Source of the DNA: Escherichia phage HMD-9
Direction: 5' to 3' (one strand)
Length of the DNA: 64,000 nucleotides
Sequence record: PV287714.1
In this document: positions 40,150 through 62,431 of the stretch, piece after piece
Numbering within the stretch: position 1 is the first letter of the stretch
Layout: every line of letters starts with the position of its first letter
The notes under the pieces: generated by a model
Seen by the model: only the letters and a program-made list of their open reading frames with translations
What the model was told of the DNA's origin: nothing
Databases searched by the model: none
Position numbers and translations under genes: made by a program

Positions 40150-40203
40150 TTTATTCTCCTTAGTTGATAGGGTAATAATATCACACTACTACCCTTCTGT
40201 AAA

Positions 40204-40584
40204 CTACTTTTTGAAAGTTTTTCGCAAAAGTTCAATGATTTCATCTACATTGTTTTCGTCAACAATGCAGTGAATTTTTGTTACGCCAGAAACCTTGTCT
40301 TCGACTTCGTCTTCTTCAGAAGTCGGTTCTTTATACTCACGAAAACAATGAAATTCGTCTTCGCAAATTTCTAAAAGTCTATCTTTGAGATAAAAATGCT
40401 TTCCATTTGCGCATTCAATGTGTTTTACTGCTTTATATCCATTAGCGAAGGAAACTTCTTTAACTTCAAACCATCCGCCATTATCTCGAATAGCTTTAAC
40501 TATTGATGAATTAGAACGTGGACTATAATTAATAAATGTATCAATAAGTCTTGGAACAAGTTCATACTTTCTACCAGTATACAT
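40204..40584 (-). CDS. hypothetical protein (frd.3 position)
   Basis: 126 aa ORF. Confidence 0.7.
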   Translation of the reverse strand: MYTGRKYELVPRLIDTFINYSPRSNSSIVKAIRDNGGWFEVKEVSFANGYKAVKHIECANGKHFYLKDRLLEICEDEFHCFREYKEPTSEEDEVEDKVSGVTKIHCIVDENNVDEIIELLRKTFKK

Positions 40585-40880: not shown

Positions 40881-40894
40881 CAGTATTGCCGATA

Positions 40895-40929
40895 GTTGTA
40901 TAGTACCATAGTCCTTGTTGTATGTAAAC
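40895..40929 (-). promoter_or_regulatory. T4 early-type promoter
   Basis: Minus strand A/T-rich UP, GTTTACA, about 17 nt, TACTAT; same architecture as motA promoter. Confidence 0.4.
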
Positions 40930-57505: not shown

Positions 57506-57545
57506 TTTCTAATCTCCGTAATTCTGTATCAGTAGTTGATAGTTG

Positions 57546-57576
57546 TATAGTACCACAGTATGCTTTGGTTGTAAAC
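57546..57576 (-). promoter_or_regulatory. early promoter for motA
   Basis: Minus strand A/T-rich UP, GTTTACA, spacer, TACTAT. Confidence 0.45.
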
Positions 57577-59253: not shown

Positions 59254-59404
59254 TAGTAGATAACAACACAAATGTTAAATATGCACACATACCCTGAGCT
59301 AAAGCTTGCGAAAACACACTGCTAGCATCGATACAGATAGTTAAAACACATGCTACTATCCAACAAATAAATGAAATAACTCCTAATAATTTCGCAATAT
59401 TCAT
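59246..59404 (-). CDS. small membrane protein, Ac-like (52 aa)
   Basis: ATG at 59404 with SD GGAG; single TMD; T4 ac position. Confidence 0.6.
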   Translation of the reverse strand: MNIAKLLGVISFICWIVACVLTICIDASSVFSQALAQGMCAYLTFVLLSTND

Positions 59405-59414
59405 AATATTCTCC

Positions 59415-59570
59415 TCAACTATTTTTAGAACCAATGTACGCGAATAATGATAAAATCGCTAATACGCCCTGAGCTGATGCTTGCAAAAATACTGAAGTTT
59501 CTCCAGTTATTACTGTTCCGATGCATAAAAAGAACCAACAGAAAAAGGCTATACCGTGAACAAATTTCAT
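59415..59570 (-). CDS. small membrane protein, paralogue of the Ac-like protein (51 aa), not in track
   Basis: Shares F.CW..C..T...SVF.QA.AQG pattern with the adjacent ORF. Confidence 0.55.
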   Translation of the reverse strand: MKFVHGIAFFCWFFLCIGTVITGETSVFLQASAQGVLAILSLFAYIGSKNS

Positions 59571-59577
59571 ATTTTCC

Positions 59578-59658
59578 TCACTGGCGTCCGAAGACGCCTT
59601 TAGTTTTAAGATTGTTACGATAGAACTGCATCACGTGTTCGTTATGGAAATTGCTCAT
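59578..59658 (-). CDS. stp: Stp peptide (26 aa), anti-restriction / PrrC-activating peptide
   Basis: Translates to [26 protein letters not shown], matching T4 Stp as I recall it. Confidence 0.85.
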
Positions 59659-60101
59659 TAATATGCCTGCAAAACAAATTTAAAATTATCAGCCAACATA
59701 CGGTTCATTTCTTCAAGTGTTTGATACTCAGAATGATGATTACGAGTAAACGCCAAAGCTAACTGACCTTTTCCAAATCCTGTCGTCAGAGGTTTCATCT
59801 TAGAAGCAGGCAGATAAAATACTGTGTATACCATATTGTTATTTGCAATAGTACGCGCAAGCTGAGACCGACGTTGACGAATATGACTTAGAACTGCACT
59901 GAACCCTTGCTTAGAACGCTGATTACCTACATAAAATCGTGCAGATACGCATGAACCATCGAATTCACTTACTAAAAAGTAAAATCCAGGTTTAGATAAA
60001 ATATCTTTATGCGGAGTTCCAAAAACCCATTCACCGCCCTTGATTGTACCAATAACAGTAGCGCCTGCATTATTCAGATCAGTAACAGTCATGTATTTCA
60101 T
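59658..60101 (-). CDS. ndd: nucleoid disruption protein Ndd
   Basis: About 147 aa from [13 protein letters not shown] with SD GAGG; track start 60149 is upstream. Confidence 0.85.
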
Positions 60102-60161
60102 ATTAATTTCCTCTAAATTATTTTCTACTCCAAGGCCGCATGTATTCATGCGGCCATTAAA

Positions 60162-60377
60162 TTAATCGTCGCAGTCGACGCTCAATTCCCAAAACTCTTC
60201 TACGGTATAAGTTTCAGTATCATTTTCAATACAGAAACGTTCATTACTGTTATTTGCTAAAGTAGCATTAACTGTCGGTTTCTCGCTAGTGCTCTTAAGA
60301 GGTGAAATACGAATTAACTGATCACCGTTATCTAAACAGAAAATTTCACCAACTTTTACATCTTTAAAACTTTTCAT
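60162..60377 (-). CDS. hypothetical protein (ndd.1 position)
   Basis: 71 aa ORF. Confidence 0.65.
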   Translation of the reverse strand: MKSFKDVKVGEIFCLDNGDQLIRISPLKSTSEKPTVNATLANNSNERFCIENDTETYTVEEFWELSVDCDD

Positions 60378-60385
60378 AATTCACC

Positions 60386-60493
60386 TCAAGGAGTATAAAA
60401 TCCAAACGCAGTTGTTGACCATCCCATCCAATATGGGAAATTTGCACCAATGTAAAACATAAGAATATAAAACCAAATGTTTAGTAAATTCAT
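60386..60493 (-). CDS. tiny hydrophobic peptide (35 aa), not in track
   Basis: ATGA coupling to upstream ORF; MNLLNIWFYILMFYIG... Confidence 0.45.
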   Translation of the reverse strand: MNLLNIWFYILMFYIGANFPYWMGWSTTAFGFYTP

Positions 60494-60690
60494 CATTTTA
60501 CACCATTCCAAATTGTTTCAACTACGGATTTTAAACCATTTTGATGAATATCCATTCCGACTACCGCCATCAAATAGATTCCAACTACAACTGAACCTAA
60601 GGCAAAAATCAGCATGAAAATGAATAAAGCCGGAAAAATATTATCGAAAAACCATTCAATAAATGTAAAAGCACTACGTTTACGCTTCAT
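60493..60690 (-). CDS. small membrane protein (65 aa)
   Basis: ATG 60690 with SD GAGGA; TM segment FPALFIFMLIFALGSVVVGIYLMAVV. Confidence 0.6.
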   Translation of the reverse strand: MKRKRSAFTFIEWFFDNIFPALFIFMLIFALGSVVVGIYLMAVVGMDIHQNGLKSVVETIWNGVK

Positions 60691-60697
60691 ATTTTCC

Positions 60698-60811
60698 TCA
60701 CATAAATCCAAAGTAAGCGTTTAATACATCAATCATTAAAACGATTGGGAATATACTCAAAACTACTAGTATTATAACTACATTCCATATAGCTTTAACA
60801 ATCTTTTTCAT
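60698..60811 (-). CDS. small membrane peptide (37 aa)
   Basis: ATG 60811 with SD GGAGG just downstream of an early promoter; track ORF is an upstream extension. Confidence 0.5.
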   Translation of the reverse strand: MKKIVKAIWNVVIILVVLSIFPIVLMIDVLNAYFGFM

Positions 60812-60839
60812 TTTCTGTTCCTCCGTAGTTGATAGGGTA

Positions 60840-60869
60840 ATAATACCACAGAGGAACAGTCTTGTAAAC
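60840..60869 (-). promoter_or_regulatory. T4 early-type promoter
   Basis: Minus strand GTTTACA - ~18 nt - TATTAT. Confidence 0.4.
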
Positions 60870-60876
60870 AACTTTT

Positions 60877-60975
60877 TTAAAAATATTCGTAATAAATGTG
60901 AATACCAATCACTACTGCCGAAACTTGTGCAACCCACCACGCACAAGCAATAAGTACAGAATTCAAAATTTTCAT
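60877..60975 (-). CDS. tiny hydrophobic peptide (32 aa), not in track
   Basis: MKILNSVLIACAWWVAQVSAVVIGIH...; coupled to neighbours. Confidence 0.4.
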   Translation of the reverse strand: MKILNSVLIACAWWVAQVSAVVIGIHIYYEYF

Positions 60976-61058
60976 AATAACCTCATCACAAAAGTAAATG
61001 TTAAACAAATTAATGGAATACTAATTAACCAAACAAAACACCACCATAATGAACTCAT
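60972..61058 (-). CDS. tiny hydrophobic peptide (28 aa), not in track
   Basis: MSSLWWCFVWLISIPLICLTFTFVMRLL; ATGA overlaps on both sides. Confidence 0.4.
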   Translation of the reverse strand: MSSLWWCFVWLISIPLICLTFTFVMRLL

Positions 61059-61327
61059 AGTTCAATCTCAGCGATTTTCATTTCATTACTATTAATAGCC
61101 GCTTTAAGACTATCTGAAAGAATTACATCCCAGTGGTCATTCATATGACCATTAACTAAACGTGTAATTTCTTCGGGAGTTGAAAAATAAGGCGTATCAG
61201 ACTCCCAGTGCGATAGTCCCAAGCGAGTATAAATCATACCTTCATCATCGATAGAATATTCAACTGACACAAACTCATCAGTTATTTTATGTTTAGCGTA
61301 ATAAAATTTAAATTTCATTTTACTCAA
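61055..61327 (-). CDS. hypothetical protein
   Basis: 90 aa ORF. Confidence 0.65.
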   Translation of the reverse strand: MSKMKFKFYYAKHKITDEFVSVEYSIDDEGMIYTRLGLSHWESDTPYFSTPEEITRLVNGHMNDHWDVILSDSLKAAINSNEMKIAEIEL

Positions 61328-61542
61328 TAATCCGCTAAAAGATCGACAATTGCATCACGAAGACACTTATTCGCAATACGTTTAAGAGCAATTTCAGTTT
61401 CTGGAGCATTTTGAATAATCATTGAATTCAATTCAGCCTCAGCAAACTGAAGTTCTTTAACTAATTCAGCTTTATATTTTCCTTGCCCTTTCTTAGCTTT
61501 TGCTCGTTTTAATTCAGCTGTAGTAAACATTTTATTCTCCAA
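61324..61542 (-). CDS. hypothetical protein
   Basis: 72 aa ORF; early promoter (61564-61594) upstream. Confidence 0.65.
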   Translation of the reverse strand: MENKMFTTAELKRAKAKKGQGKYKAELVKELQFAEAELNSMIIQNAPETEIALKRIANKCLRDAIVDLLADY

Positions 61543-61563
61543 ATCCGTATCAGTTGATAGTTG

Positions 61564-61594
61564 TATAGTACCACAGTCCTTGTGGTATGTAAAC
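61564..61594 (-). promoter_or_regulatory. T4 early-type promoter
   Basis: Minus strand A/T-rich UP, GTTTACA, spacer, TACTAT; near-identical to motA promoter. Confidence 0.4.
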
Positions 61595-61611
61595 TGTTTT
61601 GTGAAAATTTT

Positions 61612-62169
61612 TTAAATGGAAAGATACCATCCGTTGTAGTTGCTTTTTCTTACAACTTTACGAAGGTCTTCTCTATCACCGATGAACTTCGGAGTGTACT
61701 GGATGACACCTGGATGAATTTCTTTAGTGTTGAATATAATTATACAGTCAGCGACTTGGTGATTCAGAATGGGCCCTAGATTTATTCCAGAACCATATGG
61801 ATACTCTCCGCTGCATCCTGTTGTTACCGAAATCCAACGTGAGTCAGTTTGATGGGTTTTGACTTCTACACGAAGTCCGCAGTATCTTGGGTGCGCCAAT
61901 ACATCCCACGCATATGTATACGGGTCATTAACATCCTCTTGGCCTTTGTTAACATACCCGCTTAGCCAATCTGCTACAAAAAACTCTGCGTACACCGCGA
62001 TACGGCATCTTTCGATAACTTCTGCTTTATCCTGATTTGGATTTTGTTTTAAAGAGTATCTTGCTGTATCAGCAATTTTGACCTTCATTTCACTAGTCAA
62101 GTCACTGTTCGATAGGGTAAATGTCGGAATCTGAAATAGTCTCTGTAAACCCGGATTCGTTTTCTGCAT
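61612..62169 (-). CDS. denB: endonuclease IV (DenB)
   Basis: 185 aa; size and position match T4 denB. Confidence 0.75.
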   Translation of the reverse strand: MQKTNPGLQRLFQIPTFTLSNSDLTSEMKVKIADTARYSLKQNPNQDKAEVIERCRIAVYAEFFVADWLSGYVNKGQEDVNDPYTYAWDVLAHPRYCGLRVEVKTHQTDSRWISVTTGCSGEYPYGSGINLGPILNHQVADCIIIFNTKEIHPGVIQYTPKFIGDREDLRKVVRKSNYNGWYLSI

Positions 62170-62431
62170 TTAGACTTTCCTTTTTACCGCTGAGATAAGC
62201 GTTATATACTTTAAGAGTACCATAATAAATTCTGTCATTTTCATCTAAAGACTCACGGTCGAGTTCATCGAGTTCCTTTTTATCCATGACTATAACATCA
62301 TTACAGTAAAGAAACCCAAGTTTTTCGTGACCAAACTCAAATTTATTGCAGTACACAATATTAGCGTGATGATTTCCGTGTAGATTAATCTCTTTTATGT
62401 CGGAATCACCGATATTCATACAATAAATCAT
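62102..62431 (-). CDS. hypothetical protein overlapping denB 5' end
   Basis: 109 aa ORF; start uncertain. Confidence 0.55.
   Translation of the reverse strand: MIYCMNIGDSDIKEINLHGNHHANIVYCNKFEFGHEKLGFLYCNDVIVMDKKELDELDRESLDENDRIYYGTLKVYNAYLSGKKESLNAENESGFTETISDSDIYPIEQ

Follow-up and report, generated by a model that had tools for sequence, protein, structure and literature searches.

Conserved hydrophobic micro-genes ndd.2 to ndd.6 in a Tequatrovirus genome and a candidate translational insulator at their internal early promoter

In a 64,000-nucleotide stretch of Escherichia phage HMD-9 (PV287714.1; hereafter the window), our analysis identified, by sequence and gene order, five tiny hydrophobic open reading frames (ORFs) between denB and ndd as the long-annotated T4 genes ndd.2, ndd.2a, ndd.4, ndd.5, and ndd.6. 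We consider it very probable that these ORFs are genuine, conserved early genes encoding peptides of 28–65 residues, each organized around one hydrophobic helix. This degree of confidence applies to our best explanation taken as a whole, in which the genes are genuine and would be distributed over two cassettes, their products would insert into the membrane and play an accessory role, and a hairpin would insulate the second cassette. The array genes, the promoter, and the shuffling habit of the region are already present in the T4 literature and family databases, and the observation itself is not new.

The window belongs to a T4-like phage of the genus Tequatrovirus, with 96–97% nucleotide identity to SYGD1 and RB14. 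An earlier sequence-only reading had described a chain of five ORFs of 28–65 codons between ndd and denB, linked by ATGA or near overlaps and encoding Trp/Phe/Ile-rich peptides. Its account of the structure was right: the coordinates were confirmed on the minus strand, and Trp, Phe, and Ile together make up 25–32% of each of the five peptides. What it missed was their identity as the annotated T4 genes ndd.2–ndd.6, along with the existing annotation of the promoter embedded among them. The peptides share 92–98% amino-acid identity with their T4 counterparts and match PHROG and Pfam profiles with E-values of about 1e-17 to 1e-30 (3e-17 to 3e-30 for PHROG), with Pfam DUF7248 scoring 71.9 bits against ndd.2a (cutoff 27). 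Their genes lie on the early strand, flanked by denB and ndd and arranged as in T4, and Tequatrovirus genome annotations already name the ndd.2–ndd.6 genes.

In the direction of transcription, with all features on the minus strand, the locus opens with a T4-type early promoter (61565..61593; TTTACA-17-TACTAT, with TG) that would start the first cassette. This is followed by an RB32ORF266c-like gene (61324..61530) encoding a soluble protein of 68 aa, which is missing in T4 and several relatives and whose ribosome-binding region, GGAGAATAAAA, agrees with the consensus for strong RegB sites, and by an RB14ncORF269c-like gene (61055..61318; 87 aa, soluble). Next come ndd.6 (60972..61058; 28 aa, phrog_8851), a single-helix hydrophobic peptide whose homologues with MSSKxWCLIWIxCIPxIC are present in JS98-type and other loci, and the hydrophobic ndd.5 (60877..60975; 32 aa, phrog_5011), which was found only within Tequatrovirus. 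Beyond a second, internal promoter lies ndd.4 (60698..60811; 37 aa, phrog_3098), with an N-terminal KK.VK and one predicted transmembrane helix; no other member of the array is as widely kept as this first gene 3' of the internal promoter. It precedes ndd.2a (60493..60690; 65 aa, Pfam DUF7248, phrog_2401), which combines a basic N-terminus and one predicted transmembrane helix with a conserved C-terminal tail, NGLKSVVETIWNG, and ndd.2 (60386..60496; 36 aa, or 35 aa; phrog_4135), an uncharged, aromatic-rich peptide in which the motif GxNxPYWxGxS is conserved. The second cassette closes with ndd.1 (60162..60377), which encodes a soluble, acidic protein of 71 aa. Stop and start codons overlap as ATGA at the ORF269c-like/ndd.6, ndd.6/ndd.5, and ndd.2a/ndd.2 junctions; gaps of 7 nt separate ndd.4 from ndd.2a and of 8 nt ndd.2 from ndd.1, each with the ribosome-binding sequence overlapping the preceding stop codon. 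The small ORFs have ribosome-binding sequences at correct spacing. Two adjacent hairpins lie 3' of ndd.1, before ndd (60136..60180; CGTCG..CGACG and GGCCGCATG..CATGCGGCC; z -4.30), the second of which is the annotated stem_loop 2009-2030 of X75802.

The internal promoter (60840..60868, minus strand; TTTACA-17-TATTAT with a TG extension) lies where the sequence-only reading had placed an early-type promoter, at 60840-60869. It received the top score in a 3-kb scan (10/12 matches, tied with one site lacking TG), fits the PST/T4 consensus TTTACW-N17-TAYWAT, and corresponds to the annotated promoter 1296-1332 of T4 record X75802. A 43-nt promoter-plus-leader motif occurs five times in the window against an expectation of zero. 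We infer from this layout that the variable 'region D' carries, between denB and ndd, two neighbouring early-promoter cassettes: cassette 1, starting at the 61593 promoter, would comprise the ORF266c-like and ORF269c-like genes, ndd.6, and ndd.5, and cassette 2, from the promoter at 60868, would comprise ndd.4, ndd.2a, ndd.2, and ndd.1 and run on into ndd. Host sigma-70 polymerase would transcribe both cassettes within the first minutes of infection, and the array would be translated largely through stop/start coupling. The ndd.2–ndd.6 transcripts of T4 are classed as 'early' (PMC9697503 Table S2). Insertion/deletion breakpoints among relatives adjoin the upstream early promoter (61565..61593): T4 is without both the ORF266c-like and ORF269c-like genes and five relatives are without one, the alignment resuming at the promoter. 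Recombination of promoter cassettes has previously been invoked to explain why ndd.4/.5 and other ORFs are exchanged for one another (PMC4122927 Fig. 6A). No stable hairpin was found in the 72 nt preceding the mid-array -35 (best fold -9.3 kcal/mol, inside the ndd.5 coding sequence), and Rfam matched no RNA family within 59400-62400 at E<=1.

The internal promoter is itself spanned by a 15-bp hairpin formed from an inverted repeat (60815..60859, minus strand; -23.2 kcal/mol, z -4.55). Its 5' arm (60859-60845) falls in the spacer of the promoter, between -35 and -10; its loop carries the -10 element and the predicted transcription start, near 60833; and its 3' arm (60829-60815) includes GGAGG, the ribosome-binding sequence of ndd.4. 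The promoter/SD duplex has an energy of -25.7 kcal/mol (p<=0.0005), the duplex test being non-significant in 4 of 10 lineages. We compared lineages through per-lineage folds and shuffle tests rather than a single consensus structure, because in a MAFFT alignment that keeps the -35, the -10, and the ribosome-binding sequence in register the hairpin arms lie at different offsets in each lineage. By this comparison, the hairpin appears to be retained in six T4-like lineages of distinct sequence, with arm changes that compensate one another; there, in arms of differing sequence, the GGAG of the 3' arm is fully paired in 10 of the 11 representatives and has three of its four bases paired in the eleventh. 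On read-through RNA from cassette 1, the ndd.4 ribosome-binding site would pair with promoter-spacer sequence, so that cassette 2 would be translated efficiently only from its own promoter. We therefore raise, tentatively, the possibility that the hairpin is a conserved translational insulator, restricting translation of the ndd.4/ndd.2a/ndd.2 block to transcripts from its own promoter. Hairpins of this design were found at 4 of the 11 T4-type early promoters in the window, about a third.

The same inverted repeat could instead act as DNA, or serve as a transcription terminator or a recombination signal of the promoter-early stem-loop (PeSL) kind, rather than as a translational insulator. Such a role would be in keeping with insertions and deletions in relatives that begin at early promoters, with the pairing of promoter and stem-loop in the PeSL cassettes of T4-type phages, and with three other early promoters in the window whose hairpins span the -10 and leave the ribosome-binding sequence untouched. 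However, in PeSL cassettes the stem-loop precedes the -35 and does not span the -10, no U-tract occurs 3' of the hairpin, and the 3' arm covers GGAG in all 11 representatives of the six lineages despite their different arm sequences. Concealment of the ribosome-binding site is, moreover, a logic already documented for the T4 genes e, soc, 49, and I-TevI, whose leader hairpins sequester it (PMC3014915). On this evidence, we judge a DNA-level or terminator function unlikely and keep translational insulation as the preferred, if tentative, reading of the hairpin. If true, it would extend the 'promoter inside RBS-hiding hairpin' rule from late genes to early accessory cassettes, offer a general rule for how shuffled early accessory cassettes stay independent, and mark ndd.4, ndd.2a, and ndd.2 as one functional membrane module.

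Turning to the peptides, the best 19-residue Kyte-Doolittle window scores 2.2–3.05 for ndd.6, ndd.5, ndd.4, and ndd.2a; ndd.2, which has no charged residue, reaches 1.29, a marginal value for a transmembrane helix. The N-terminal charges of ndd.4 and ndd.2a reside in KKxxK and KRKR, respectively, and the AlphaFold2 model of ndd.2a comprises helices 5-17 and 19-64 (mean pLDDT 80.5). All five peptides would probably insert in the inner membrane. Because their N-termini are basic, ndd.4 and ndd.2a are predicted to adopt an N-in, C-out topology, which would leave the C-terminal tail of ndd.2a facing the periplasm. In T4, CRISPRi-ART scored ndd.1 to ndd.6 as 'Not Fit', i.e. knock-down without fitness loss (PMC11879866), and phages with region D deleted, such as NB5060 (rII-ac), remain viable (PMC12115623). 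JEP6, a natural phage, carries a 13-nt frameshifting deletion in ndd.2. Searches of Pfam, PHROG, and NCBIfam recovered only the ndd families and DUF7248 and revealed no resemblance to Imm, to Sp, or to a characterised family: NCBIfam gave no match for the peptides, Pfam gave DUF7248 alone, and a PDB profile search with ndd.2a returned none. As for the literature, a search on ndd.2a found no paper, the main texts of the HIDEN-SEQ and Ojima preprints do not mention these genes, and ndd appears in PMC6893735 solely as a toxic control. We consider a conditional accessory role at the membrane plausible: the peptides would be non-essential accessory factors that, at our best guess, act by binding and modulating proteins of the host envelope, conferring an advantage only on particular hosts or under particular conditions.

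A different role was suggested in the sequence-only reading, namely that the peptides could be membrane-acting factors for host takeover or superinfection exclusion. As weighed here, they would be membrane-damaging toxins or exclusion factors, in either case acting early on the host envelope. Early transcription, single hydrophobic helices, and a neighbourhood with many early genes directed at the host (ndd, denB, stp, ac, and rIIB) would suit such a role. The suggestion nevertheless found no support in our analysis: the searched collections (Pfam, PHROGs, NCBIfam, and PDB) yielded no similarity to toxin families or to Imm and Sp, knock-down leaves fitness unchanged, deletions of the whole region are viable, and one natural phage has a broken ndd.2. 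We regard toxicity or exclusion as quite improbable and favour the conditional accessory role.

That the five ORFs are translated at all is supported by comparison across 16 relatives, in which their frames are intact except for three isolated lesions, and the stop/start overlaps are likewise maintained. Variation falls mostly at third codon positions (2/1/9 variable sites by codon position in ndd.5), and dN/dS values of 0.066 for ndd.5, 0.065 for ndd.2a, and 0.116 for ndd.2, against 0.092 for the coding control ndd.1, indicate purifying selection. For ndd.6 and ndd.4, which have only 4 and 5 variable sites in Tequatrovirus, too few for a meaningful dN/dS (0.58 for ndd.4), coding support comes from cross-genus conservation. 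In Dhakavirus, Gaprivervirus, and several more distant T4-like lineages, four of the five families (ndd.4, ndd.2a, ndd.2, and ndd.6) retain their motifs, their gene order, and the stop/start overlaps, and the protein motifs persist at 40–60% identity where the DNA of a lineage is no longer alignable. A homologue search with ndd.2a gave only 8 close clusters, and the family is narrow, because an exhaustive profile search gave only 32 representatives at 50% identity. The plus-strand ORFs 60477-60617 and 60898-61095 were considered and rejected, the substitution pattern tracking the minus-strand frames.

These patterns bear directly on the view that the small ORFs are untranslated and have arisen by chance in AT-rich DNA, whether intergenic or leader. 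In its favour, the ORFs are shorter than the usual ORF cut-offs, relatives annotate them inconsistently, with ndd.6, ndd.4, or ndd.2 absent from many annotation records, and T4 proteomics detected no ndd.2–ndd.6 peptides, listing these proteins as NA (PMC9697503); tiny hydrophobic peptides are, though, hard to see by mass spectrometry. Chance frames would not, however, be expected to show third-position-biased variation with dN/dS of 0.07–0.12, equal to that of ndd.1, whose protein was detected early in T4 infection (PMC9697503), nor to combine retained frames and overlaps with correctly spaced ribosome-binding sequences and motifs that outlast DNA alignability. We consider this alternative very improbable and treat the five ORFs as coding. 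The analysis offers a clean argument for the reality of the micro-genes and shows their omission from many phage annotations.

Two annotation artefacts are corrected as well. The first is a mechanical ORF of 82 aa (60698..60946, minus strand), of which only the last 37 codons, those of ndd.4, are genic; its extension crosses the promoter, and ndd.5 in another frame. The sequence-only reading had taken it for an artefactual extension through the promoter, and our results agree. That this ORF is the true ndd.4 product, with the internal promoter irrelevant, is scarcely credible even though it is open in the window and 9 of 16 relatives and phrog_28140 (80 aa), matched by ndd.4 at positions 44-80, appears to hold the extended form: in 7 of 17 sequences, poly-A-run indels cut the extension short or throw it out of frame, its sole start is a TTG within ndd.5 without a ribosome-binding sequence, variable sites by codon position number 8/1/0 in its own frame vs 1/0/8 in that of ndd.5, and homologues in other genera begin MKK right after the ribosome-binding sequence. 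The second artefact is the T4 'ndd.3', which arises from a single base missing at ATGAA(G)CGT in the T4 reference sequence, either by sequencing error or as a strain polymorphism; in the window, T4 'ndd.3' and 'ndd.2a' form one reading frame, that of ndd.2a. The most widely kept member, ndd.4, together with the regulatory hairpin proposed here, provides starting points for screening T4 accessory genes against host panels and defence systems.

Among known systems, the closest counterpart is the ndd.2–ndd.6 set of T4 itself (NC_000866 T4p270-T4p275; PHROGs 4135, 2401, 3098, 5011, and 8851), which shares the internal early promoter and the overlaps with the window. It differs in that the T4 reference splits ndd.2a into two genes, where the window has a single 65-aa gene, and in that T4 lacks the two extra soluble genes found upstream of ndd.6 in the window, as in RB14. 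At the protein level, bacterial small single-pass membrane proteins regulate larger membrane proteins (reviewed in PMC12648545), and an analogy to the ndd peptides can be drawn. These regulators, and the T4 proteins Ac, gp52.1, Imm, and Sp, resemble the ndd peptides in size, single hydrophobic helix, and charged terminus, and the genes for the small membrane proteins Ac and gp52.1 lie in the T4 region that holds the array; none shows sequence similarity to the ndd peptides, and the likeness would be one of form.

At the level of gene organization, the cassettes resemble the PeSL cassettes of T4-type phages (Arbiol 2010, PMC2839356; Comeau 2014, PMC4122927) in combining a strong promoter of sigma-70 type, preceded by an AT-rich tract, with a downstream ribosome-binding sequence and ATG, and also in their small non-essential ORFs, hyperplastic region, and promoter-bounded insertions/deletions; Fig. 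6A of Comeau 2014 (PMC4122927) uses this very locus as a PeSL example. The difference lies in the stem-loop, which sits upstream of the -35 in PeSL and here spans the -10 and the ribosome-binding sequence. In this respect, the locus resembles T4 genes e, soc, 49, and I-TevI, where the ribosome-binding sequence is paired on the long read-through RNA, as predicted for ndd.4, and where the promoter lies inside the DNA for the 5' strand, so that proximal transcripts are without that strand, as would likewise be the case here. Those genes, however, use late promoters to delay translation, whereas the internal promoter here is early and lies within an early operon, so that the effect of the hairpin would be cassette insulation rather than timing.

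Megablast of the segment 59600-62200 recovered 558 phage records, nearly all from T4-like phages of Escherichia, Shigella and Yersinia, with vB_EcoM_SYGD1 and RB14, both of the genus Tequatrovirus, as the best matches (96-97% identity). The genes considered here are all encoded on the minus strand, and we assigned gene names from the RB14, SYGD1 and T4 annotations. Between the flanking ndd (59658-60101, -) and denB (61612-62169, -), these annotations place ndd.1, ndd.2, ndd.2a, ndd.4, ndd.5 and ndd.6; the interval also holds RB14ncORF269c-like and RB32ORF266c-like genes (ORF269c-like and ORF266c-like), both absent from T4. The micro-genes are ndd.6 (60972-61058, -; 28 aa), ndd.5 (60877-60975, -; 32 aa), ndd.4 (60698-60811, -; 37 aa), ndd.2a (60493-60690, -; 65 aa) and ndd.2 (60386-60496, -; 36 aa). 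ATGA overlaps join ORF269c-like/ndd.6, ndd.6/ndd.5 and ndd.2a/ndd.2, and gaps of 7 nt (ndd.4/ndd.2a) and 8 nt (ndd.2/ndd.1) each carry a ribosome-binding sequence overlying the upstream stop codon. Trp, Phe and Ile together make up 25-32% of each peptide. The sequence-only reading, which had described a chain of tiny, overlapping ORFs of this composition, was thus accurate as an observation and sound in its structural interpretation; the array corresponds to genes ndd.2 to ndd.6, already annotated in the T4 reference genome, and its promoter and modular evolution have been described previously.

Annotation of the micro-genes is erratic among deposited relatives: calls of ndd.6 are very rare, many records omit ndd.4 or ndd.2, and some of the genes bear the label 'naphthalene 1,2-dioxygenase', apparently a mis-annotation that has been propagated. 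Between ndd.1 and ndd lie two adjacent hairpins (60136-60180, -; fold z -4.30), the GC-rich one of which, GGCCGCATG..CATGCGGCC, is an annotated stem_loop in X75802, the GenBank record of the T4 ndd gene. The mechanical 163-aa Ndd ORF begins at an ATG within this hairpin; the true, 147-aa gene starts at 60101. Some distant T4-like lineages carry a zinc-ribbon-like CxxC...C ORF of 41-45 aa in the denB-ndd interval (L028 3280-3405; L029 2762-2899); the window lacks one.

Aligning the region across Tequatrovirus (the window plus 16 other sequences), we found all five frames kept in the 16 relatives with four exceptions: ndd.2 of phage JEP6 (L046) has lost 13 nt, ndd.6 of phage G8 (L009/L048) has gained 2 nt at its 3′ end, ndd.6 of PD112 has an extra in-frame Trp codon, and ndd.2a of the T4 reference has a 1-nt gap. 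A frameshifted ndd.4 also occurs in one IMG/VR genome (L017), and the broken copies of JEP6, G8 and L017 are consistent with dispensability or sequencing errors. Most variation falls at third codon positions, with variable sites at positions 1/2/3 of 2/1/9 in ndd.5 (dN/dS 0.066), 3/3/22 in ndd.2a (0.065) and 4/3/13 in ndd.2 (0.116), against 1/5/22 (0.092) in ndd.1, which served as the coding control because its protein has been detected in T4. Within-genus variation in ndd.6 (4 variable sites) and ndd.4 (5) is too low for such a judgement.

The array also recurs across T4-like phages. In 36 IMG/VR loci found via the Ndd protein (47-93% identity), most lineages encode a member of the ndd.4 family (MKK[IL]LKAIWN..VL[SA]IFP.V.MID; 56-61% identity); the ndd.2a family retains a basic N-terminus, a single hydrophobic helix and a C-terminal [DNE]GLKSVV[ED].IWNG; and the ndd.2 and ndd.6 families retain GxNxPYWxGxS and MSSKxWCLIWIxCIPxIC, respectively. 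Gene order and the 4-nt stop/start overlaps recur as well. By sequence conservation, these loci settle the coding status of all the families except ndd.5, which among the loci compared was found in Tequatrovirus only. DNA-level alignment to the retrieved Dhakavirus and Gaprivervirus records was possible for ndd.4 only; what is conserved is therefore the protein sequence. Each of the five peptides has a PHROG family match, and ndd.2a also hits Pfam DUF7248. An exhaustive profile search with ndd.2a returned only 32 representatives at 50% identity, all but three of 25-81 residues, making this a narrow family. Its conserved C-terminal tail (NGLKSVVETIWNGVK) also matches 9-10 tandem xIKSVVTTAWNG repeats in large phage proteins (P0017, P0022, P0024; 820-976 aa) that look, from their sequences, like tail tape-measure proteins; this match probably reflects a common short helix motif and not homology.

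At codon 2 of ndd.2a (window 60685), the T4 reference NC_000866 (L003 3549-3629) and X75802 (L004) read ATGAA-CGT, and all others read ATGAAGCGT, including RB55, which is classified in T4's species. The intact 65-aa gene is present in the re-sequenced T4 clone OL964735, in RB55 and in all 14 other relatives. The G missing from the T4 reference yields an out-of-frame 26-aa 'ndd.3' and a 40-aa 'ndd.2a' starting at an internal Met. From this comparison, 'ndd.3' most likely arose through an error of sequencing or annotation, and the real form of ndd.2a is the 65-aa gene of the window.

In T4, transcripts of ndd.2, ndd.2a, ndd.3, ndd.4, ndd.5 and ndd.6 are classed as early and their proteins listed as not detected, with Ndd and Ndd.1 proteins early (Wolfram-Schauerte et al. 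2022, PMC9697503 Table S2). Transcriptome-wide CRISPRi-ART knock-down scored ndd.1 to ndd.6 as 'Not Fit', that is, without fitness effect (PMC11879866 supplement), and viable deletion mutants lacking region D, between rIIB and gene 52, include NB5060 (rII-ac, carried by T4GT7) and the SaΔ series (PMC12115623). The array is dispensable in the laboratory.

Four peptides reach a 19-residue hydropathy of 2.2-3.05 (ndd.6, ndd.5, ndd.4 and ndd.2a); ndd.2 is marginal (1.29) and has zero charged residues. The basic N-termini MKKIVK and MKRKRS suggest that ndd.4 and ndd.2a are single-pass peptides with the N-terminus on the cytoplasmic side. An AlphaFold2 model of ndd.2a contains a short helix (5-17) and a long one (19-64) at a mean pLDDT of 80.5, and the N-in topology would place its conserved tail in the periplasm. 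A natural 62-aa chimera, Shigella phage Sf25 gp120 (P0007), joins ndd.4 residues 1-28 in frame to the C-terminal 34 of ndd.2a and carries both PF26889 and PF23906 in precomputed annotation; the fusion is at least compatible with a common topology of the two. The 'outer membrane protein' and 'periplasmic protein' labels on these genes are old automatic predictions; a hydrophobic helix of 28-36 residues is not known to form an outer-membrane fold. Searches of Pfam and NCBIfam, and a PDB profile search with ndd.2a, found no similarity to characterised proteins, and we therefore limit our claim to small accessory inner-membrane peptides produced directly upon infection. They most probably act by binding host envelope proteins and would be useful on some hosts only; host takeover, toxicity or superinfection exclusion are guesses.

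The early-type promoter proposed within the array was recovered as the top-scoring site of a local scan: TTTACA-17-TATTAT with a TG extension (60868..60840, -), which scores 10/12 matches, equalled by a single further site without the TG, and corresponds by position to the promoter annotated at 1296-1332 of X75802. A 43-nt promoter-plus-leader motif (GTTTACA..TGGTAYTAT....CTATCAACT) has five copies in the 64-kb window versus 0 expected (40162-40204, 40887-40929, 57534-57576, 60827-60869 and 61552-61594, all -). These repeated leaders reappear as cross-matching guide targets, imm.1/ndd.6 and nrdC.8/ndd.4 (CRISPRi-ART supplement, PMC11879866). This exact locus served as an example for Comeau, Arbiol and Krisch 2014 (PMC4122927), who attributed the exchange of T4 ndd.4/.5 for ORF268/269 in phage PST to promoter-early stem-loop (PeSL) cassette recombination; the mid-array promoter and the one upstream of the array both fit their consensus, TTTACW-N17-TAYWAT. 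Comparing window 61094-61620 with L003, L007-L010 and L031, we found that T4 lacks ORF266c-like and ORF269c-like and five relatives lack ORF266c-like only. Homology resumes at an early promoter plus leader in every insertion or deletion case, and this gene-content comparison agrees with the PeSL shuffling model. The ORF266c-like ribosome-binding region GGAGAATAAAA (61530-61540, -) exactly fits GGAGRAYARAA, the strong-site consensus of the T4 RegB endoribonuclease (PMC3014915); that of ndd.4, GGAGGAACAGA, fits it poorly.

The mechanical 82-aa ORF (60698-60946, -) extends ndd.4 upstream through this promoter, and the suspicion that the extension is artefactual was borne out. Its sole start is a TTG within ndd.5, and in 7 of the 17 sequences the extension is truncated or re-framed by A-run length variation after the ndd.5 stop. 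In the overlap, the distribution of variable sites over codon positions is 8/1/0 in the frame of the 82-aa ORF versus 1/0/8 in that of ndd.5, and homologues from other genera start at MKK immediately 3′ of the ribosome-binding sequence. The match of ndd.4 to the 80-residue profile PHROG 28140 is confined to positions 44-80; the artefact has therefore seemingly been annotated in some genomes.

A repeat finder identified an inverted repeat (60859-60845 vs 60829-60815) whose 5′ arm on the transcribed strand sits between the -35 and -10 of the mid-array promoter, whose loop contains the -10 together with the start of transcription expected for this promoter, and whose 3′ arm, ACTACGGAGGAACAG, constitutes the ribosome-binding sequence of ndd.4. 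As RNA, the repeat folds into a helix of 15 bp (-23.2 kcal/mol; z = -4.55 vs shuffles). The 5′ arm would be missing from RNA initiated at the internal promoter; in transcripts that begin at the upstream promoter and read through, the ribosome-binding sequence would be paired. A local scan found no terminator-like site between the two promoters.

Elsewhere, ndd.4 homologues are preceded by a like layout with different arm sequences: CATCTCCATTAG/CTAATGGAGATG in the JS98-type lineage (z -5.18), CATCTCCGGTGGTTG/CAACTACTGGAGATG in VR7-type (z -5.75), CTCCGTTAG/CTAACGGAG in L019-type (z -3.83), TTGTTCTTCGGT/AACTGGAGAACAA in L025-type (z -2.90), and weaker pairing in L028-type (z -2.01). The layout thus occurs in six sequence-distinct lineages. 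One arm pair changes from T-A to G-C between JS98 and VR7, another from A-T to G-C between JS98 and L019, and within Tequatrovirus pairing is retained through G-U at 3 of 4 variable arm positions. In a duplex test of promoter segment against ribosome-binding segment, p was <=0.0005 for the window, JS98, VR7 and L019, 0.003 for L025 and 0.02 for L028. The test was not significant in four further lineages, two of which, L036 and L033, have the 5′ arm immediately 3′ of the -10 element. The window contains 11 T4-type early promoter-to-gene junctions; four share the design (60868, 31285, 17758, 24997 (-)), and three more have a hairpin across the -10 element only. From pairing and position, the hairpin is probably a translational insulator between the cassette ending in ndd.6 and ndd.5 and that beginning with ndd.4, and the design seems to be a general means of insulating early cassettes. 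Only this hairpin and the conserved ndd.4/ndd.2a/ndd.2 core are leads worth an experiment.

The hairpin differs from PeSL stem-loops, which lie upstream of the -35, whereas it spans the -10 and the ribosome-binding sequence; a PeSL-type stem-loop upstream of the mid-array promoter's -35 was looked for and is absent. Leader hairpins that enclose a late promoter are documented for T4 genes e, soc, 49 and I-TevI (Uzan and Miller 2010, PMC3014915). The ndd.4 hairpin shares the principle of those leaders, although their promoters are late and that at ndd.4 is early, and by its sequence it would be a new, unproven example of this already known principle.
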